Source: Candidatus Saccharimonadales bacterium
Lineage (GTDB): Bacteria; Patescibacteriota; Saccharimonadia; Saccharimonadales; UBA10212
Direction: 5' to 3'
Assembly (NCBI GenBank): GCA_049521895.1
Contig: JBEKOJ010000001.1
Location: 162,717-226,716 of the forward strand
Length of the DNA: 64,000 nt
Each line of letters opens with the position of its first letter. Position 1 is the stretch's first letter. The position numbers and the translations under genes were made by a program. Positions 9,078 to 59,616 of the stretch are shown piece after piece. The notes beneath the pieces are model-generated. The model saw only the letters and a list, made by a program, of their open reading frames with translations. It was not told the origin of the DNA and did not search any database.

Positions 9078-9081
9078 ACAA

Positions 9082-9180
9082 CCATTTTACATTTTTCACT
9101 TGGCATTTGACATTTATTTACCATTGTTAAATGTTCAATGCTAAATTAATGTAAATTGAAAATTGTAAATTGAAAATTCA
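9082..9180. repeat. Low-complexity quasi-palindromic spacer repeat, family A (CATTT/ACC arm and AAATG/TAAATTG arm)
   Basis: The 5' arm ccattttacatttttcacttggcatttgacatttatttaccattg faces the 3' arm caatgctaaattaatgtaaattgaaaattgtaaattgaaaatt. It shares the core GCATTTGACAT with the copies at 28983 and 37111. Confidence 0.6.
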
Positions 9181-9188
9181 GGTCGCGC

Positions 9189-10906: not shown

Positions 10907-10930
10907 ATTATCTCTTGAGCATTATTTTCT

Positions 10931-10958
10931 ATAAAAAGACCTTGGCGATTTACCAAGG
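10931..10958 (-). terminator. Putative intrinsic attenuator hairpin in the rplJ leader
   Basis: The minus strand reads CCTTGG-taaatcg-CCAAGG followed by TCTTTTTAT, about 25 nt upstream of the rplJ ATG. Confidence 0.45.
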
Positions 10959-11094
10959 ACTACAGAAGATGTCTGCACAACAATACATTGCGCGTTAACC
11001 TCGGTAGCAGATTAAGCCCGCTTGTCGCGGGCAGCTACTGTCTTTGGCAATCTAATAGTAGATTAGCACAACCTGCAACTTCTTACAAGTCCTA
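10959..11094 (-). promoter_or_regulatory. Candidate L10(-L12) autoregulatory leader
   Basis: This 188-nt untranslated gap holds nested stems (GTAGC..GCCCGC-gacaa-GCGGGC..GCTAC) upstream of the attenuator. The position matches known rplJ leaders, but identity was not verified. Confidence 0.35.
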
Positions 11095-13104
11095 TCAATT
11101 CGTCTTTTTAGAGCGTTGCCGGGGCTTTGTTTTTTTATCAGTTTTAGCCTGGGTTAAGCTTAATAACGCCTTGGCCGATTGTTTTTCTAGGGCTGCCGCC
11201 AGGAGAGGGTGTACTTCCCGGACTTTTTCCCTCAAAGCCGCGATTAACTTATCTAAACCGGAGGCTCGCTGAATTGGCGTGCTGGGAAAGAACAGCCTTT
11301 GGGCGTTAGTACTGAACTGCCAGCGCGATTTATGCCCTAGCAAGGCTGCATAAGCGGCCTCTCTACCCCTGTTGGCGGATTGCAATTCGCTAAATAGTTT
11401 CAGGCTCCCATCGAAACATTCGATGAATTCATTTTCCAACCCGACTCGCTCTACCGGTTCAGGTAATTCATAGCCATAACGGGGAGTAGCTGATTGCAAC
11501 CTTGGGTCATCCACCAACCCGCTAGCTATAGCCTCGGATATTGTCGACCGGTCGCTCAAAGCATCCCAACGGTATCGTACTTGCTCCAGTACGCTATTTG
11601 ATGAATCTGCCACCAGAGTACGTAGGGCTGTCTCTTTTCGTTCGTAGGTCCAGCGCTCAACTCCATCAGATAGCTCATTTCTCCCCAAATCGGTATACGG
11701 ATAAATACCATCGACTAGCAGTGAAAATTCACTTCTGGGCCAAAATTCCAACAACTTAAGGGGTTCGCCGGCCAATGCTAAATTAGTGGGTAGATCAGTT
11801 GATTTGAGGAGTGCAGTCAGCTTGCTAGTTGACGGATGTGCATGAGGGACTGCCTCGGCCTTAAACGCAACCCTCAGTATCTTAGCTAAAGCCTTAAATT
11901 CCGGCAGCTGATTAGCTTCTAGTTGTAGCGCGAGTAAATTGATTGACGCAGAGCTGCCGACTACCGTACCAGATGTTAGGGCAGCCAGCGGTATAGTTGG
12001 TTGTAAGCAATGATGGATTAGATCTTCTAGTTTGGGAGTGTTCTGGCTGGCACTCTTCTTTTGCTGCTCAAAAAGTCTAAGTATGCCAGTTTGCATCTGC
12101 CGCTGTAGCACAATGAGTTTCTTCATAGCACTGTTAAAGTTCTTAGCAAGTAACGGGCTTAGGGTCGGCGGTAAGTAATATTGATATTTGCCGTCCTTTG
12201 CGCCCCAGTCCCATGGGTGTTTGAAACGTAGTAATATGCCTGGGGCAGCCTCAATTACGCTGGCGGCTAGTAAGCTTAGTTGGGTAATTTCAACCGTTAA
12301 ATGGTCGCTTTCTGCCTCGGGCGCAGCGGCCGGATGGGTGTGAGGTCTTTCGTGGTCTTCCTCTAATTTAACCACTGTTTTTCTACCCTTATGAGGAGGG
12401 CTGGCTGGCAAGAGTGGCTGAATGACGTCCCAGATTCGGTTATTTATAGTTGGGATATCTAGCAAACGATTTCGCTCGGTACACTCGATGGCTACAAAAT
12501 CCTTCGGAAATAGTTGGCAAAGCAAGTCATAGGCCTTAAGCGTTGCGCGCAAGTGATGGGTGTCTTTCTCGTGCTCGTCTGGTTTGATTCCTGTTTTATG
12601 CGCTCGAGTTTTAATTAAGCGCTCAGCCGTTTCAGTCGGTACTCGTAAGAATAAATTGATATCCGGCCGCGGGATACCCAGCAGGCTGAATTCCAAGCTG
12701 TCAGCCCATACAAAAAATCCTCTCTGTTCAGTCTCATCTTCAAATTTAGATCCTTGGTGGGCCATGTTAGAGCCGGCGTATCTATTGGAGAGAACGATTT
12801 TACCGCGCCTAAGCGCCTGGCGTATCTCTGGTGCTGCCTCATAGCGGTCTAGGGCGTAAAACATTGAAGCTGCATAGGGGTTAATTTGGCTCGCTGGTCC
12901 ATAATGGCCGCCTAGATAGCGCTGTACGAAGTGGCTGGATGGTTGGTCGTACCGCGGAAAATCAAACACCTCGACTTCATAGCCGACAGCTCTTAGCCGC
13001 TCAGCAAGCAAGTTAAACTGGGTGTTCTTACCGGAGCCGTCAGAGCCTTCTAAAACGATGAATTTACCAGGGTATTCTTGCATGACGCTATGCTCATATC
13101 CCAC
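11095..13104 (-). CDS. tmk: Fusion protein: N-terminal thymidylate kinase plus C-terminal ThyX-like (Thy1 fold) region
   Basis: Residues 1-215 match dTMP kinase (FIVLEGSDGSGKNTQ P-loop, DRY motif). The C-terminal ~430 aa carries ThyX-like strings: RYRWDALSDRS (compare RHRxxSxxxxSxR) and REAAYAALLGHKSRWQFSTNAQRL (compare ARxxLPxxxxTxxxxxxNxRxL). Confidence 0.7.
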   Translation of the reverse strand: MGYEHSVMQEYPGKFIVLEGSDGSGKNTQFNLLAERLRAVGYEVEVFDFPRYDQPSSHFVQRYLGGHYGPASQINPYAASMFYALDRYEAAPEIRQALRRGKIVLSNRYAGSNMAHQGSKFEDETEQRGFFVWADSLEFSLLGIPRPDINLFLRVPTETAERLIKTRAHKTGIKPDEHEKDTHHLRATLKAYDLLCQLFPKDFVAIECTERNRLLDIPTINNRIWDVIQPLLPASPPHKGRKTVVKLEEDHERPHTHPAAAPEAESDHLTVEITQLSLLAASVIEAAPGILLRFKHPWDWGAKDGKYQYYLPPTLSPLLAKNFNSAMKKLIVLQRQMQTGILRLFEQQKKSASQNTPKLEDLIHHCLQPTIPLAALTSGTVVGSSASINLLALQLEANQLPEFKALAKILRVAFKAEAVPHAHPSTSKLTALLKSTDLPTNLALAGEPLKLLEFWPRSEFSLLVDGIYPYTDLGRNELSDGVERWTYERKETALRTLVADSSNSVLEQVRYRWDALSDRSTISEAIASGLVDDPRLQSATPRYGYELPEPVERVGLENEFIECFDGSLKLFSELQSANRGREAAYAALLGHKSRWQFSTNAQRLFFPSTPIQRASGLDKLIAALREKVREVHPLLAAALEKQSAKALLSLTQAKTDKKTKPRQRSKKTN

Positions 13105-14949: not shown

Positions 14950-15381
14950 TTAACTTTCTATCTCAATGCCCATGCTGCGGGCAGTACCAGCAACCATTTT
15001 TTTAATGGTTTCAATGTCTTCTGTGTTCATATCCTCGGCTTTAGCTTGGGCGATTTCGGTTAGCTGCGATTGGCTGAGCTTTTTCTCCAGCTTGGCTTTG
15101 TTGGGCTCACCAGAACCTTTCTCCTCTTTTAGGGCGGCTAAGATCAGTTCGTCTGTCGGCGTACCGACAACTCGCCAGTTCATACTCCTATCATCATAAA
15201 TGGTTATATGCACTGTCAACATTTGCCCCATGCGGTCTTTGGTCTGCTCGTTAAAAGGATTTACGAAGTCCATTATGTTCACGCCGTATTGGCCCAAGCT
15301 GGATCCCACTGGTGGCCCGGCACTAGCCTGTCCGCCGCGGATTTTCAATTTTAGATTTGCTTTAACTTCTTTAGCCATCAA
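14950..15381 (-). CDS. rplK: 50S ribosomal protein uL11
   Basis: 143 aa. ..GGQASAGPPVGSSLGQYGVNIMDFVNPFNEQT.. is canonical uL11. Confidence 0.96.
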   Translation of the reverse strand: MMAKEVKANLKLKIRGGQASAGPPVGSSLGQYGVNIMDFVNPFNEQTKDRMGQMLTVHITIYDDRSMNWRVVGTPTDELILAALKEEKGSGEPNKAKLEKKLSQSQLTEIAQAKAEDMNTEDIETIKKMVAGTARSMGIEIES

Positions 15382-15401
15382 AAGCTCCTTTCGGTCGCTT
15401 T

Positions 15402-15476
15402 AGGAACTAGAAACAAGGAACTAGGAACTAGTTTCAGCGCGATTCGCTTGTTGCTTGTTACTTGTTTCATGTTGCT
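15402..15476. repeat. Low-complexity quasi-palindromic spacer repeat, family B (GGAACTAG arm)
   Basis: The arm aggaactagaaacaaggaactaggaactag (29/30 identical to 26242-26271) faces cttgttgcttgttacttgtttcatgttgc. It fills the nusG-rplK spacer. Confidence 0.65.
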
Positions 15477-15479
15477 CGT

Positions 15480-16022
15480 TTAGACTCTTTTCACCTGAAG
15501 GCCATCCAGCTCTACTGGAGTTTCGCGGCCAAACATATTAACCAGTACTTTTAATTTACCTTTTTGGGCGTCAATCTCGTTTATAGTGCCGTCAAAGCCC
15601 TTAAATGGCCCGTCTATGATGTTGACCACTTCGCCGATCTGGTAATCAAACTTGTGCTTGGGTTCTTCGCGGCCCATGCGCTTCATGATTTTAGCAATTT
15701 CTTCGGGCTCTACGGGCGTCGGTTCGGTACCGGTACCAACAAAACCAGTGACATTAGGTGTATTGCGGACAATATACCAAGCGTCCTCAGATAACTTCAT
15801 CTCTACCAACACATAGCCCTGGAAGATACGTTTTTCGACAATTTTGCGCTTGCCATTTTTGATTTCTATCATCTTTTCCTTGGGGACCAGCACCTGAAAA
15901 ATTTTATCCCCCATATCTAAGCTTTCCGCACGTTGGCGGATACTCTCGGCTACTTTTTCCTCATAGCCACTGTAGGTATGGATAGCGTACCACTGCTTGG
16001 TTGAATCGTATCGTTTGGCCAT
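15480..16022 (-). CDS. nusG: Transcription termination/antitermination factor NusG
   Basis: The NGN domain (WYAIHTYSGYEEKV) and KOW domain (GEVVNIIDGPFKGFDGTINEID) are both present. Confidence 0.95.
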   Translation of the reverse strand: MAKRYDSTKQWYAIHTYSGYEEKVAESIRQRAESLDMGDKIFQVLVPKEKMIEIKNGKRKIVEKRIFQGYVLVEMKLSEDAWYIVRNTPNVTGFVGTGTEPTPVEPEEIAKIMKRMGREEPKHKFDYQIGEVVNIIDGPFKGFDGTINEIDAQKGKLKVLVNMFGRETPVELDGLQVKRV

Positions 16023-26218: not shown

Positions 26219-26241
26219 TACGCGCTTCCTCCGGAGGCTAT

Positions 26242-26306
26242 AGGAACTAGGAACAAGGAACTAGGAACTAGTTTTTCCTGTTTCCTGTTTCCTGTTTCCT
26301 GTTTCC
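26242..26306. repeat. Low-complexity quasi-palindromic spacer repeat, family B, with (CCTGTTT)x4
   Basis: The arm aggaactaggaacaaggaactaggaactag is followed by tttttCCTGTTTCCTGTTTCCTGTTTCCTGTTTCC. The arms pair as AGGAA/UUCCU blocks with regular mismatches. Confidence 0.7.
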
Positions 26307-26327
26307 TAAAAATGCTTTGCATTTTTA
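26307..26327. other. A/T hairpin TAAAAATGC-ttt-GCATTTTTA overlapping the rpoA stop codon
   Basis: A perfect 9-bp palindrome. The same hairpin occurs at the rpsH stop (33516-33538). Confidence 0.6.
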
Positions 26328-27906: not shown

Positions 27907-27926
27907 TACAGACCTCCTTCGGAGGT

Positions 27927-28038
27927 AATTATCAATTTACAATTATCAATTCTCAATAATTTAGCATCTGTCATCTGCCATTGATCAAATGAAAAATGTG
28001 AAATTAATGGTAAATGGTAAATGGGATATGGTAAATGG
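27927..28038. repeat. Low-complexity quasi-palindromic spacer repeat, family A (about 85% identical to 34041-34138)
   Basis: Reads attatcaattctcaataatttagcat...gccattgatcaaatgaaaaatgtgaaattaatggtaaatggtaaatgggatatggtaaatgg. Confidence 0.7.
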
Positions 28039-28051
28039 ATGCGCAGCATCA

Positions 28052-28534
28052 TTAGGTTCTCCGAGCCTTTCGTGGACGCACGCCACCGTGGGCGATACTA
28101 GTTACGTCTTTAATCCCTTCAACCTCAATCTTCTGGTTTATCAGGGTTCTAACAGCCGCTTCACGGCCCAGGCCAATGCCCTTGATGAGTACTTCCAACT
28201 TACTGATGCCATAGTTTTGTTTGGCGGTATCTATAGCCTTTTCAGCAGCGATTTGCGCGGCGTAAGCAGTGCCTTTTTTGGAACCACGGAAGCCGGAACT
28301 GCCAGCGCTGGCACTTGACAAGACATTACCTTTGGGATCAGTGATGGTAACAATGGTGTTATTGAAGCTTGCTAAGATGTGGGCTTGACCCTGCGGCACA
28401 GAACGCTTAGCCCGCGATTTTTTAGGCTTAGCGACGGGAGTTGGCACTTCTATAGCTTTAGCATTATCAGTCTCAATAGTTTCTGCGACTGCGGGTTCTT
28501 TCATTTCTTTAGTCTTTACTTCTTCTTTAGCCAT
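28052..28534 (-). CDS. rpsK: 30S ribosomal protein uS11 with about 35-aa N-terminal extension
   Basis: ..GQAHILASFNNTIVTITDPKGNVLSSASAG..GSKKGTAYAAQ.. is canonical uS11. Confidence 0.95.
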   Translation of the reverse strand: MAKEEVKTKEMKEPAVAETIETDNAKAIEVPTPVAKPKKSRAKRSVPQGQAHILASFNNTIVTITDPKGNVLSSASAGSSGFRGSKKGTAYAAQIAAEKAIDTAKQNYGISKLEVLIKGIGLGREAAVRTLINQKIEVEGIKDVTSIAHGGVRPRKARRT

Positions 28535-28960: not shown

Positions 28961-29083
28961 TTATCATTGAGCATTGATTTAACAGGTAGCATTTGACATT
29001 GTTCGGAATTGCTAAATGAGAAATGAGAAATAAATGGTAAATGTGAATTGGTAAATGTGAATTGGAGCAATTTCATTGCGACT
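28961..29083. repeat. Low-complexity spacer repeat, family A variant
   Basis: Contains aggtagcatttgacattg and aaatgagaaatgagaaataaatggtaaatgtgaattggtaaatgtgaattgg. A tandem atttatcattgagc x2 sits at 28945-28972. Confidence 0.6.
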
Positions 29084-33413: not shown

Positions 33414-33435
33414 TACGCAACCTCCGGTTGCTTTA

Positions 33436-33515
33436 GTAAAAAGTAAAAAGTAAAAAGTAAAAAGCTAACAGCGGCATATGGTGGCTGCTTGTTGCCTTTT
33501 ACTTGTTGCCTGTTG
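33436..33515. repeat. Low-complexity quasi-palindromic spacer repeat, family C, with (GTAAAAA)x4
   Basis: GTAAAAAGTAAAAAGTAAAAAGTAAAAAgctaacagc faces gctgcttgttgccttttacttgttgcctgttgc. Confidence 0.65.
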
Positions 33516-33538
33516 CTAAAAATGCAAAGCATTTTTAG
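33516..33538. other. A/T hairpin CTAAAAATGC-aaa-GCATTTTTAG overlapping the rpsH stop codon
   Basis: A perfect 10-bp palindrome, the same as at the rpoA stop except the loop is complemented. Confidence 0.6.
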
Positions 33539-33924: not shown

Positions 33925-34040
33925 ACGCACCTCCGGTGCTCAATTTTCAATTTACAATTATATAGCTTCAAGCCAGGCTGGCTTTTATTTTTAAGGCTGG
34001 CCAGCTTGGTTTTGGCATATAATGCTTCCTTATCGGTCAC

Positions 34041-34138
34041 ATTATCAATTTTCAATAATTTAGCATTTAGTAATTGGCCATTGGTAAATGACAAATGAGA
34101 AATTAATGTGAAATGGTAAATGGGATATGGTAAATGGG
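34041..34138. repeat. Low-complexity quasi-palindromic spacer repeat, family A (about 85% identical to 27941-28038)
   Basis: Reads attatcaattttcaataatttagcatttagtaattggccattggtaaatgacaaatgagaaattaatgtgaaatggtaaatgggatatggtaaatggg. Confidence 0.7.
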
Positions 34139-34159
34139 ATGACATAGTCATTTTATCTC

Positions 34160-34429: not shown

Positions 34430-34562
34430 TATTTGCGCCCTCCGGGCTTATGAAGACAACCTACGGTTTTCCTCATCGAACCTTTTGGAATAAATCCAAA
34501 TTCGCCTCGCGAACCGGTTATACTCTTTTCCCTTAGGTTAACTACTACTGTAAATGATTTCA
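34430..34562 (-). promoter_or_regulatory. Structured intercistronic leader upstream of rpsN (paralog of the rplB leader)
   Basis: The minus strand reads TAAGGGAAAAGAG..hairpin..CGATGAGGAAAACCGTAGGTTGTCTTCATAAGCCCGGAGGGCGCAAATAATG. Compare 39349-39460. Confidence 0.45.
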
Positions 34563-35207: not shown

Positions 35208-35230
35208 TAGACGCTCCCTTTAGTCGCTTT

Positions 35231-35305
35231 AGGTGACAGGTTGTAGGTTGTAGGTGACAGTTTAGTTACAGTTTTTGTAACCTGTAACCTGTAACCTGTA
35301 ACCTG
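35231..35305. repeat. Low-complexity quasi-palindromic spacer repeat, family D, with (GTAACCT)x4
   Basis: aggtgacaggttgtaggttgtaggtgacag faces GTAACCTGTAACCTGTAACCTGTAACCT. The arms pair as AGGU/ACCU blocks on the mRNA strand. Confidence 0.65.
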
Positions 35306-35326
35306 ATGATGAGTGGAACGAATCAT

Positions 35327-37052: not shown

Positions 37053-37071
37053 AACAGAGTTCCTTCGGGGC

Positions 37072-37185
37072 TATTTACCATTGACCATTTGCCATTTTCC
37101 AGTGATTTACCAGGTAGCATTTGCCATTGGTTAGATAAAAAATCAGCAATAAATGTTAAATGTAAATTGTTAAATGTAAATTGGA
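37072..37185. repeat. Low-complexity quasi-palindromic spacer repeat, family A (inverted orientation)
   Basis: tatttaccattgaccatttgccattttccagtgatttaccaggtagcatttgccattgg faces caataaatgttaaatgtaaattgttaaatgtaaattgg. Confidence 0.65.
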
Positions 37186-37200
37186 ATGACGGAGTCATGA

Positions 37201-47865: not shown

Positions 47866-47882
47866 TAGCAATCTCCGATTGC

Positions 47883-47966
47883 GGTATGGGGTATGGGGTA
47901 TAAGGTATAAGGTATTTATCGTCCACGACTCCATACTTAATACCTGATACTTGATACGAAATACCC
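47883..47966. repeat. Low-complexity quasi-palindromic spacer repeat, family E (GGTATGG/GGTATAA arm)
   Basis: ggtatggggtatggggtataaggtataaggtattta faces ccatacttaatacctgatacttgatacgaaataccc. Confidence 0.65.
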
Positions 47967-47968
47967 AT

Positions 47969-58332: not shown

Positions 58333-59616
58333 CTATTCAGTTTTTAAGATTTTAACGACTTCTTCTTGGTCTAGTTCCAGCTCCTTGGCCGATTCCAGGT
58401 TTTTGAGCTTATACTTGCCGCTTGCCAGTTCCTGCTCGCCAATAAATAAGACGTGAAGGACACCAGACTTAACGGCACTTTTAATACACGCGTCTAACTT
58501 ACGGCCGGAGTTATCTACGGCCAGATTCAAGCCGTTCGTGCGCCAGGCGGCTAAGACTTTTTGGGCCGCACCGTAAACATCACCAACCATAACAACGACT
58601 GCGTCTATCTCGGTTGGCAGCTTGGGCAAGAGATCGTGGCCCTCCAGAAAGTTCTGCAGCGTAACATCCCCCATAGCAAATCCGATGGTTGGTACGGATT
58701 CTACGCCAAACGCCGCCACCAGACCATCGTAGCGGCCACCACCAAACATTGAGCGGTTATTATCCGGGTGCTCGTCAAAAACTTCAAAGATGATGTCGGT
58801 GTAATAGTCAAAGCCACGCATCAGGCTGATATCTTCTAGTGTGTTGCTAATGCCGCTGGCGGCCAGTAACTTTTGCAGGGCCAGCAAATTTTGGGCAGAC
58901 GGATGTTTTTGGTACTTTTCCGGCAGCTGGTCGAAGGATTTAGCTGAGAAGATTTTAATCAACTCGCGGGCTTTAGCCTCGCTGACGATCTGGGCCAGGC
59001 CTTCGCGAAACTCATCATGAGGCATCTTGGATCTGTGGTCCACAAAACGCACGATTTTTTGCAGGCGTTCATCGTCCATACCTGCGTGGTCACGCAAAAT
59101 GGCGTCCACCAGCTTGCGACTGTTGATCCGAATAGAGTAATCGTCGTGCTTAGCACCAAAAGCTTTTAGGATTGAATCCGCCACCAGAATTTCTTCGTGT
59201 TCCGCTAACAAATCGGCTACTCCGAACAAGTCCACGTTAAGCTGCCAGTGCTCACGCAGGCGGCCCTTTTGTGGCCTTTCGTAGCGCCAAACATTAGGGA
59301 TGCTGTAAAGCCTAAGCGGGTAGCTCAGTTCCTGGCGGCGGGCGGCTACCATGCGACTGACTGTAGGTGTCATTTCCGGCCTGATGGTAACCTGGCGACC
59401 ACCGCGATCCATAAAACTATAGGTCTGTTCGGCGACAATCTCTTCGCTAGATTTACTGAGATAAAGCTCTAGCGGTTCAATGATCGGTGCGTCATACTCC
59501 TGGTAGCCAAAGCTCTCAACCACCCGGCGCATCACGCCGAACATATACTTCTGCAGACGTTTGTCATCCGGATAGAAATCCCGCGCCCCCTTATATGGTT
59601 GAGTAGATAAGCTCAT
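58333..59616 (-). CDS. hisS: Histidine--tRNA ligase
   Basis: ..PYKGARDFYPDD..F.GYQEYDAPIIEPLELY.. with class II motifs (..RYERPQKGRLREHWQ.., ..GGGRYDGL..). Confidence 0.95.
   Translation of the reverse strand: MSLSTQPYKGARDFYPDDKRLQKYMFGVMRRVVESFGYQEYDAPIIEPLELYLSKSSEEIVAEQTYSFMDRGGRQVTIRPEMTPTVSRMVAARRQELSYPLRLYSIPNVWRYERPQKGRLREHWQLNVDLFGVADLLAEHEEILVADSILKAFGAKHDDYSIRINSRKLVDAILRDHAGMDDERLQKIVRFVDHRSKMPHDEFREGLAQIVSEAKARELIKIFSAKSFDQLPEKYQKHPSAQNLLALQKLLAASGISNTLEDISLMRGFDYYTDIIFEVFDEHPDNNRSMFGGGRYDGLVAAFGVESVPTIGFAMGDVTLQNFLEGHDLLPKLPTEIDAVVVMVGDVYGAAQKVLAAWRTNGLNLAVDNSGRKLDACIKSAVKSGVLHVLFIGEQELASGKYKLKNLESAKELELDQEEVVKILKTE

Follow-up and report, generated by a model that had tools for sequence, protein, structure and literature searches.

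Heptamer-repeat cassettes at ribosomal protein gene junctions of a Candidatus Saccharibacteria genome

Bacterial tandem heptamer repeats have been on record for decades, yet no clear function has emerged for them. They include the short tandemly repeated repetitive (STRR) heptamers of heterocystous cyanobacteria, whose sequences were reportedly described by Mazel and colleagues in 1990. Modular BOX elements are built differently, with a repeat module of about 45 nucleotides (nt). Few non-coding sites of bacteria are as compact and conserved as the junctions of ribosomal protein operons, and the genomes of Saccharibacteria are highly streamlined. Here we examine two near-identical 30-nt heptamer arrays in a 64,000-nt stretch of DNA from a Candidatus Saccharimonadales bacterium (contig JBEKOJ010000001.1, positions 162,717 to 226,716; hereafter the window), which form parts of larger intercistronic elements that we call cassettes. 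The window has 48.6% GC, derives from the Candidatus Saccharibacteria/Saccharimonadales and carries the gene clusters nusG-rplKA, rpoBC, str, S10, spc and alpha.

Intergenic heptamers of the TAACTGA type occur in Beggiatoaceae, Cyanobacteria and Bacteroidetes, and the Maribeggiatoa genome contains 169 sets of direct repeats and only one indirect repeat (PMC4679880). Heptanucleotides are the commonest long-unit simple sequence repeats in prokaryotes, according to reports cited in PMC4679880. Repetitive extragenic palindromes (REPs) are G+C-rich sequences of 20-40 bp that occur in hundreds per genome, and many of them have GTAG or CGTC as their head (PMC2817692, PMC3116915, PMC3733652). The 5' untranslated region of the hmw1A and hmw2A genes of Haemophilus influenzae contains a hairpin with a transcribed (ATCTTTC)n array as one of its arms; RNase III cleaves this hairpin, and the hairpin affects changes in repeat number (PMC12721329).

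Two near-identical arms and the cassettes that contain them

The initial annotation of the window reported near-identical 30-mers in the nusG/rplK and rpoA/rplQ spacers, and this was borne out at the same coordinates. The sequence AGGAACTAG[A/G]AACAAGGAACTAGGAACTAG occurs on the plus strand at 15402-15431 and 26242-26271, one copy in each spacer, with 29 of 30 positions identical, and both copies are composed of (TAGGAAC)x4 blocks. The neighbouring genes, coding for NusG and L11 at 15.4 kb and for RpoA and L17 at 26.2 kb, all lie on the minus strand. When at most one mismatch is allowed, GGAACTAGGAAC has five matches in the window versus 0.21 expected, a number reached by none of 100 shuffled sequences. 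Every match falls within the two spacers. In addition, GGAACTAG occurs seven times in the window versus 1.6 expected. Six of these occurrences are within the two spacers, and the seventh, a lone copy at 58371 inside hisS, is consistent with chance.

On the mRNA, each 30-mer is the 3' arm of a cassette that occupies its entire spacer. The components of these two Family B cassettes are listed below, with array periods from Tandem Repeats Finder (TRF).

26219-26324, minus strand: Family B cassette copy 1, the entire rpoA/rplQ spacer of 106 nt (predicted fold with a minimum free energy of -32.7 kcal/mol, z score -3.41)
26308-26326, minus strand: post-stop mini-hairpin AAAAAUGC-AAA-GCAUUUUU of copy 1, covering the final two nucleotides of the rpoA stop codon (fold)
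26274-26307, minus strand: 5' arm of copy 1 on the mRNA, (AAACAGG)x4.9, equal to (CCTGTTT)n on the plus strand (TRF period 7, 100% matches)
26241-26271, minus strand: 3' arm of copy 1 on the mRNA, the reported 30-mer, (CUAGUUC)x4.4 with variant CUUGUUC as unit 3 (TRF)
26224-26238, minus strand: Type 1 Shine-Dalgarno (SD) hairpin of copy 1, GCCUCC-GGA-GGAAGC (fold, cross-junction pairing)
15379-15479, minus strand: Family B cassette copy 2, the entire nusG/rplK spacer of 101 nt (z score -1.97; aligns with copy 1 over about 95 nt)
15446-15475, minus strand: 5' arm of copy 2 on the mRNA, AAACAAG/UAACAAG/CAACAAG, a diverged homologue of (AAACAGG)n (TRF period 7, 78% matches; alignment)
15401-15431, minus strand: 3' arm of copy 2 on the mRNA, (CUAGUUC)x4.4 with variant CUUGUUU as unit 3 (29/30 identical to copy 1)
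15381-15401, minus strand: Type 2 SD module of copy 2, a 5-bp stem AAAGC/GCUUU with loop GACCGAAAGGA (fold)

The SD sequence of rplQ (GGAGG) is located at 26232-26228 and its ATG at 26218-26216; the ATG of rplK is at 15378-15376. The mini-hairpin module of copy 1 recurs at 33.5 kb with an inverted loop and, in diverged form, in L021 (L numbers designate the other sequences compared), and the 15.4-kb copy has no post-stop hairpin. The Type 2 SD module is also found in L119 and L021 at rpsM/rpsK, with covarying stems.

Both arms of both loci are period-7 tandem arrays by TRF. On the plus strand, the opposing arm is (CCTGTTT)x4.9 at 26274-26307 in the 26.2-kb copy and a degenerate GCTTGTT array at 15446-15480 in the 15.4-kb copy. 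In the predicted mRNA-strand fold of the 26.2-kb spacer, the 5' arm joins the 3' arm through blocks of 6+5+5+5+2 bp with 2x2 internal loops between them, which matches the interrupted duplex of 5-bp blocks and 2x2 mismatches proposed earlier. The 15.4-kb spacer folds less well, with a z score of -1.97 alone and -0.64 when flanks are included. Because independent JGI (Joint Genome Institute) and ENA assemblies are 100% identical across 6.9 kb containing the 26.2-kb copy, this copy is not an assembly artefact; the 15.4-kb copy lies outside the loci covered by this cross-check.

Similarity between the two copies extends beyond the 30-mers. A local alignment of the pair spans about 95 nt with a score of 71, versus 23-47 for cross-family pairs, and blastn reports 97% identity over 34 nt around the 3' arm. 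The copies agree in array copy number, position of the variant third unit, orientation and place within the cassette, and their flanks align as well (GAAA upstream and CCTAWAGC downstream). Within this alignment, the 5' arms are identical at about 24 of 28 positions as AAACARG units. Thus, the sequences given for the opposing arms were correct, but the arms are diverged homologues rather than unrelated sequences. Because the homology reaches outside the array, copying is favoured for the Family B pair. Of the two processes that had been offered in place of independent slippage, copying is therefore supported, whereas selection on the 30-mer is not, given its absence in relatives (below).

The cassettes are also mosaics. 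The 26.2-kb cassette has its post-stop hairpin in common with a cassette at 33.5 kb and its 3' arm in common with the 15.4-kb cassette, and the 5' arm of the 15.4-kb cassette is of the 33.5-kb type. The SD modules differ between the Family B copies, consisting of a stem-GGA-stem at 26.2 kb and of a 5-bp stem around GACCGAAAGGA at 15.4 kb. Transposition would account for this pattern no better than recombination or short-tract gene conversion between resident cassettes.

We lean towards the explanation that the two 30-mers are the 3' arms of paralogous intercistronic cassettes of about 100 nt that were recently copied, and that such cassettes are mainly selfish or near-neutral elements. The near-identity could stem from a duplication into the second junction or from a gene conversion of about 35 nt between resident cassettes. 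Each array might later drift and be re-homogenised through slipped-strand replication. Recent copying followed by these two processes would explain why a 29/30 arm is accompanied by another arm, a loop and an SD module that have diverged. A cassette would be transcribed as part of the polycistronic mRNA, where the transcript would fold back into one hairpin whose base brings together the stop codon of the upstream gene and the SD of the downstream gene, and the cassette's own strong GGAGG SD might give fresh initiation. An insertion of about 100 nt in a tightly coupled junction might be tolerated because the cassette brings this SD with it.

Cassettes across the window and in relatives

Period-7 arrays, with 2.6-5 copies by TRF, are pervasive in the window, and all strict arrays are intergenic. 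At least 10 spacers share a single order on the mRNA strand: a stop codon, in most cases a small hairpin (5-bp stem, 3-nt loop), about four heptamers, a loop, about four heptamers that complement the first set at 4-6 of 7 positions, in most cases an SD hairpin, and a start codon. The stop-to-start gap is filled completely, and the small hairpins are not both present in every copy. These cassettes are located upstream of dnaX and at the junctions nusG/rplK, rpoA/rplQ, rpsK/rpsD, rpmJ/rpsM, rpsH/rplF, rpsN/rpsH, rplX/rplE, rpsC/rplP and rpsL/rpsG. The layout is also found in L004, L008, L020, L021 and L119, and an additional cassette lies just beyond the window, downstream of recG. Cassettes are 95-150 nt long and contain no open reading frame (ORF), and at least 11 are present in about 81 kb of this genome. 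In addition to the Family B pair, the window contains the following.

33414-33534, minus strand: B2 cassette, rpsH/rplF, with a copy-1-type post-stop hairpin, a copy-2-type GCAACAR 5' arm and a different 3' arm, (CUUUUUA)x4 (z score -2.98, alignment)
35208-35326, minus strand: cassette of another family, rplX/rplE, (CAGGUUA)x4 / (CCUACAA)n (TRF, z score -3.88)
47866-47968, minus strand: cassette of another family, rpsL/rpsG, (GUAUNNN)x4 / (AUACCNN)x5, with SD hairpin GCAAUC-GGA-GAUUGC (TRF, fold)
27907-28051, minus strand: Family A cassette, rpsK/rpsD, with CAUUUAC / AAUUGNN arms (z score -2.61; aligns with rpoA/rplQ of L020)
28961-29083, minus strand: Family A cassette, rpmJ/rpsM (orthologous copy in L119)
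33931-34159, minus strand: rpsN/rpsH spacer, with a Family A cassette at 34040-34159, a short heptamer array and a GC-rich hairpin (score 133 versus the 28.0-kb cassette)
37053-37200, minus strand: Family A cassette, rpsC/rplP (aligns with rpoA/rplQ of L020)
9078-9188, minus strand: Family A-like cassette upstream of dnaX (TRF, z score -2.81)

The 229 nt of the rpsN/rpsH spacer include a GC-rich hairpin at 33976-34002, which is terminator-like on the plus strand, and a third heptamer array at 33940-33959 just before the SD, and this spacer may hold two nested or adjacent elements. The dnaX cassette is the only one in the window that is not upstream of a ribosomal protein gene. By our own junction counts, cassettes are present at 9 of 35 junctions upstream of ribosomal protein genes versus 2 of 51 others (Fisher p = 0.006). 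A heptamer-pair cassette that lacks an SD module is situated between two tRNA genes at L021:13937-14038, so the elements are not confined to protein-coding junctions.

Homology between cassettes is not restricted to Family B. The rpsK/rpsD and rpsC/rplP cassettes of the window are homologous to the rpoA/rplQ cassette of L020 across 135 and 141 nt, respectively, and rpsK/rpsD aligns with rpsN/rpsH of the window with a score of 133.

The complementarity of the two arms does not depend on any particular heptamer. At least seven families are present in this Saccharibacteria lineage: AAACAGG/CUAGUUC, CAGGUUA/CCUACAA, GUAUNNN/AUACCNN, CAUUUAC/AAAUGNN, GAAGAAC/UUCUUUA, AAUGAAC/CAUUGUC and UUUNUAG/CUAUAAA. 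A cassette's own arms match at 15 or more of 21 positions in 14 of 17 cassettes, versus 7.7% of cross-family pairings, and 16 or more of 21 is reached by all seven families versus 3% of the null. Because the own arms of every family match above the null, complementarity characterises the class as a whole rather than a single sequence; Family B itself has only two or three copies. Most cassettes are predicted to form ladder hairpins, with z scores of -2.6 to -3.9 in 5 of 10 window cassettes versus +1.0 to -1.6 in six heptamer-free control spacers. Complementary heptamer pairs that form ladder hairpins suggest a structural role for heptamer repeats. The arms are uniform in length within cassettes, at about 3-5 units per array, whereas arrays of these units in other organisms contain 12-53 copies, which suggests a length constraint.

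The small flanking hairpins likewise vary in sequence while retaining pairing. Across cassettes, 98% of cells in the post-stop hairpin are paired, with double-sided changes in 5/5 pairs, and the SD hairpin is 91% paired across nine junctions, with double-sided changes in 5/6 pairs, although the windows for both were hand-picked and centred by eye and the counts therefore lean towards structure. In the cassettes at 26.2 kb (26224-26238), 28.0, 33.5, 34.0 and 47.9 kb, the SD is typically within a GGA-loop hairpin of 5-6 bp whose stems covary (for example ACCUCC-GAA-GGAGGU, GCAACC-GGA-GGUUGC and GCCC-GGA-GGGC). A similar hairpin is found at the cassette-free rplE/rpsN junction near 34440. In this arrangement, the SD might be partly sequestered or displayed in a loop, resembling CsrA-type GGA-loop sites.

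The junctions were compared with those of five relatives from metagenomes and, at a greater distance, of 21 GTDB species representatives. The Family B motif is absent at both junctions in all of these relatives, contrary to the idea of a conserved function at the two sites. The apparent rpoA/rplQ gap is 2-33 nt in 16 of the 20 GTDB representatives that have both genes. The larger gaps of L014 and L015 are not real but stem from a masked stretch and a truncated alignment, leaving L020 and L021 as the only GTDB representatives with a true cassette-bearing spacer. The cassette of the L020 spacer belongs to Family A and that of the L021 spacer to a third family (GAAGAAC/UUCUUUA). At 90% identity, neither RpoA nor L17 clusters with any other protein. 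In the five nearest relatives, whose RpoA proteins are 86-90% identical to that of the window, the rpoA/rplQ spacer is 9-10 nt long (TAA-(A)GGAYTAAAY-ATG) and has its own AGGA SD. In the window, this short spacer has been exchanged wholesale for a cassette with a GGAGG SD. Because the five closest relatives carry the short spacer, the cassette is a recent insertion rather than a conserved regulator.

Occupancy of other junctions is similarly variable, with lineage-specific cassettes in place of ancestral spacers of about 3-30 nt. A cassette is present at rpsK/rpsD in the window only, at rpsM/rpsK in L021 and L119 and not in the window, and at rpmJ/rpsM in the window and L119, where L113 and L117 are empty. 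Family B was seen in this species only, and an extra 17 kb of the same genome revealed no further copy. In our view, the cassettes are chiefly selfish or near-neutral, in the manner of REPs, miniature inverted-repeat transposable elements (MITEs) and BOX elements, and are not conserved regulators. Secondarily, they may influence how the mRNA is processed or how stable it is.

The 30-mer pair is a detail of this larger picture, as a class of such cassettes is unusual for a streamlined genome and for ribosomal protein operons. At least nine ribosomal protein junctions have grown from about 3-25 nt to 100-230 nt through copied cassettes with their own ribosome-binding site, and thus even these compact junctions are open to colonisation by repeat elements. 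In genomes of the candidate phyla radiation (CPR), gene-start calling and operon prediction can be led astray by cassettes, which could also serve as strain or lineage markers.

Weighing the explanations

Several points count against the explanation we favour. Comparison of filled and empty rpoA/rplQ, rpsK/rpsD and rpmJ/rpsM junctions revealed no target-site duplication, although the relatives are 10-14% diverged in RpoA and a short one may have been erased. Moreover, no transposase or REP-associated tyrosine transposase (RAYT) is encoded in the 64-kb window or the extra 17 kb, and transposons do not usually have their boundaries at stop and start codons. Since unrelated genomes have independently acquired identical arrays (below), some of the similarity could be convergent. 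Around the 26.2-kb copy, the two independent assemblies are 100% identical to the window over 6.9 kb and show no variation in heptamer copy number of the kind that ongoing slippage would leave. We also infer the transcription, folding and translational effects of cassettes from their sequences. Finally, the antisense hairpin is more stable than the mRNA-strand hairpin in 14 of 18 cassettes from the window, L004, L020, L021, L119 and L121, a bias that would not be expected if cassettes simply folded back in the mRNA.

This strand asymmetry averages 4.3 kcal/mol (Wilcoxon p = 0.009); the 26.2-kb cassette, for example, has values of -32.7 kcal/mol for the sense and -39.9 kcal/mol for the antisense strand. 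The sense hairpin is weaker because recurrent A·C mismatches on the sense strand turn into G·U pairs on the complement, and the sense strand of cassettes is G-poor (9-23% G). Controls do not share the asymmetry. Coding windows give a difference of +1.1 that is not significant, and 9 of 12 non-cassette spacers fold better in the sense direction. Extra G·U pairs on the sense strand, the expected sign of RNA-level selection there, were looked for, and the opposite is seen. Possible readings are that selection keeps the hairpin of the mRNA or non-template strand weak, that the complementary strand has a role as single-stranded DNA or antisense RNA, or that mutation bias is responsible. The asymmetry weakens the case for a stable mRNA duplex as a selected feature, without eliminating it.

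A bolder reading, which we consider possible but rather doubtful, is that the cassettes are functional modules of a new portable class, made of a ladder hairpin and an SD hairpin, that spreads mainly among ribosomal protein operon junctions in at least two phyla. Contig L022 (61% GC) encodes ribosomal proteins 40-64% identical to those of the window, and the best named match of its EF-Tu is a Chloroflexota metagenome-assembled genome at 85%, so this contig is probably of Chloroflexota origin. Its rpsC/rplP and rplB/rpsS junctions (L022:1440-1560 and L022:2860-2985) contain a stop codon, a ladder hairpin with about three heptamers per arm, GGAG and an ATG, and the arms at rpsC/rplP are CTAGTTC/GGNACTA. 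A CTAGTTC array with a complementary arm is also present in L025, L035 and L043. If this reading were true, the roles of the cassettes might include bringing the stop codon close to the SD for re-initiation, providing points of mRNA processing or stability, or supplying a more stable complementary strand, and STRR-type heptamer repeats would gain a structural rationale. Functional cassettes would also offer natural, interchangeable intercistronic modules with which translational coupling and the processing of mRNA could be studied in an organism that is difficult to cultivate.

It is unlikely that the cassettes are selected cis-regulatory RNAs, such as a processing or stability site for RNase III or another RNase, or an autoregulatory leader, with purifying selection on the 3' arm. 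The significant hairpin at 26.2 kb, the enrichment upstream of ribosomal protein genes, the compensatory changes in the flanking mini-hairpins and the experimental (ATCTTTC)n precedent in H. influenzae (PMC12721329) are all consistent with such a function. However, no relative examined has the cassette at either junction, not even those with RpoA at 86-90% identity, rpoA/rplQ holds three different heptamer pairs in three genomes, and the 15.4-kb copy folds weakly. Searches of Rfam at the gathering threshold and at E <= 1 gave no match at any cassette. The only Rfam matches in the window are tRNAs and a canonical L10 leader (RF00557, 55.9 bits) at 10923-11065 before rplJ, which is the only known ribosomal protein leader detected there.

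The RNase III variant deserves separate mention. By likeness to the hmw heptamer hairpin of H. influenzae, cleavage of cassette transcripts is plausible (PMC12721329). A typical substrate offers about two turns of double-stranded RNA; the 26.2-kb sense hairpin has 23 bp with a 2x2 loop every 5 bp, the 15.4-kb hairpin is weaker, and both form better as antisense. The systematically weaker hairpins of the sense strand somewhat weaken the idea. No rnc gene, which would code for RNase III, was found in the window or its flanking sequence.

Site counts lend no support to a promoter or terminator function at the DNA level: they equal those of shuffled sequences, and the coding strand of the Family B cassettes has no such site. 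Weak sigma-70-like -35/-10 matches (TTGAGA…GATAAT-like) are found on the coding strand in Family A 3' arms at 27928-27956, 37153-37180, 34019-34048 and 29034-29061. These are probably a by-product of TTGANAA-type units, since their total equals the shuffle expectation.

Nor do we think it likely that the cassettes are classical MITEs or REPINs, that is, non-autonomous transposons whose hairpin or terminal inverted repeats would be recognised by a transposase or RAYT acting in trans. The arms do behave as long inverted repeats, the elements are dispersed, shorter than 200 bp, free of ORFs and polymorphic for presence and absence, and a more stable hairpin on one DNA strand would suit a single-stranded DNA intermediate. 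Against this stand the lack of a target-site duplication and of a transposase or RAYT in 81 kb of the genome. The cassettes also take the place of an entire spacer, SD included, instead of being inserted within it, their AT-rich sequences greatly exceed the 20-40 bp of REPs in length, and their mosaic exchange of sub-modules indicates recombination.

Independent slippage, in which the same heptamer was expanded separately in two unrelated spacers and the identity is convergent, strikes us as quite improbable for this pair. The window contains about 20 arrays, which makes chance sharing of a unit not negligible, and an exact 20-mer common to both copies, including its mix of CTAGTTC and CTTGTTC units, is found in 36 metagenome contigs with a GC content of 36-72%. 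These contigs mostly carry intergenic direct arrays that mix the two units in up to 53 copies; 26 of the 36 matches lie outside long ORFs by crude ORF calling, which is unreliable at high GC. In a viral collection, perfect three-unit arrays gave 23 matches for (CAGGTTA)3, 13 for (CTTGTTC)3, nine for (CCTGTTT)3, five for (CTAGTTC)3 and two for an arbitrary unit, and the composite 20-mer gave none; the 20-mer was scanned in metagenomes and the control arrays in the viral collection, so the comparison is qualitative only. These counts show that slippage alone is able to generate identical arrays. However, in the Family B pair the flanks and the diverged 5' arm align too, over about 95 nt in all, and the copies agree in copy number, variant-unit position, orientation and place in the cassette. 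In addition, other families of this genome have demonstrably been copied as whole units. Slippage alone is therefore unlikely for this pair; in general, it should not be dismissed.

We also considered whether recurrence of the 20-mer elsewhere marks a selected or horizontally moving unit. This candidate was rejected because control and arbitrary heptamer arrays recur too. As arrays of any unit keep arising, recurrence is no evidence for selection or horizontal transfer.

Some of the contigs have features of their own. Long CCTTGTT arrays are located at L047:3693-4062 (53 copies), L037:2167-2378 (30), L051:2077-2288 (30), L024:688-817 (19) and L039:1589-1675 (13). At L034:586-605 and L038:1481-1500, the 20-mer is inside a coding region, as part of a lipoprotein signal peptide (MKKFLTAILLFLVPSSLFLIGC…). 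The PVBE01 contigs L027, L032, L044, L049, L053 and L055 (GC 67-72%) have in common a repeat of about 70 nt, …GCACCAGAGCAGGCACCAGCACCCCATTCAAAATTC-CTAGTTCCTAGTTCCTTGTTCCTTGTT-GGAAGC…, which appears to be a dispersed repeat of an unrelated organism that holds the same AT-rich heptamer array.

Protein-binding iterons, with the heptamer as the unit for a single-strand binder (like a cold shock protein, S1 or Hfq) or a DNA-binding protein at about four units per site, are very improbable: the strict period of 7, the fairly constant 3-5 units per arm and the binding of one heptamer per CspB protein, along with like proposals for TAACTGA repeats (PMC4679880), would suit them, but complementary arms imply pairing rather than single-strand display, and no single sequence-specific binder fits because the units differ completely between families.

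Several ribosomal proteins of the window carry extensions. L1 (13892-14887) has 331 amino acids, and its hidden Markov model match covers only residues 106-330. L17 (25733-26218) has 161 amino acids, with a lysine/serine-rich C-terminal tail and a partial match to the 'sunset domain' variant. S11 (28052-28534) has an N-terminal extension of about 40 amino acids. Between rplA and rplJ, an ORF of 669 amino acids at 11095-13104 has a thymidylate-kinase domain confined to the first ~210 residues, with about 460 unassigned residues beyond it.

Comparison with known repeat systems

In our literature search, such elements turned up neither in Saccharibacteria nor elsewhere in the CPR, and no paper described this architecture. 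The STRR and TAACTGA repeats (PMC4679880) are similar in that tandem 7-nt units form short intergenic arrays, often just upstream of start codons and also in ribosomal protein operons, with a patchy distribution over lineages. They differ in that each is a lone direct array and that only one or very few fixed units are used. The cassettes, unlike STRR, have at least seven unit families, complementary pairs of arrays, a larger copied unit with flanking hairpins and an SD, and a CPR host.

The hmw genes of H. influenzae (PMC12721329) provide a parallel, in that a long imperfect hairpin upstream of a gene has a heptamer array as one of its arms. That system involves a single locus with a phase-variable array of at least 11 units and a non-repetitive, G-rich partner arm. 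In contrast, both arms of a cassette are arrays of about four units, and the elements are dispersed and copied.

REPs, together with the bacterial interspersed mosaic elements and REPIN-RAYT systems (PMC2817692, PMC3116915, PMC3733652), are also imperfect extragenic palindromes within operons that form families within a genome and have proposed roles in mRNA stability. Cassette hairpins are, however, about 60-70 nt long and A+T-rich, with period-7 arms and no conserved tetranucleotide head, which sets them apart from REPs. BOX elements are modular as well, with a tandem-repeated inner module and a predicted stable fold, but they are not known to have a 7-nt module, paired complementary arrays or an SD module. 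In Streptococcus pneumoniae, they are dispersed intergenic elements (PMC3184786).

MITEs such as the Correia elements (CREE) of Neisseria, ERIC of Enterobacteriaceae and RUP of pneumococcus (PMC3184786) are about 100-150 bp long and non-coding, with inverted-repeat arms that form a hairpin when transcribed, and they have dispersed intergenic or intercistronic copies whose presence varies between relatives. The cassettes share the inverted arms and hairpin, the small size without a transposase ORF and the multiple dispersed copies. Their arms are internally tandem-repetitive, their ends coincide with stop and start codons and they carry the SD of the downstream gene, and in these respects they differ from MITEs. 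Overall, the cassettes look like a variant, apparently not described before, of REP-, MITE- and STRR-like intergenic repeats.

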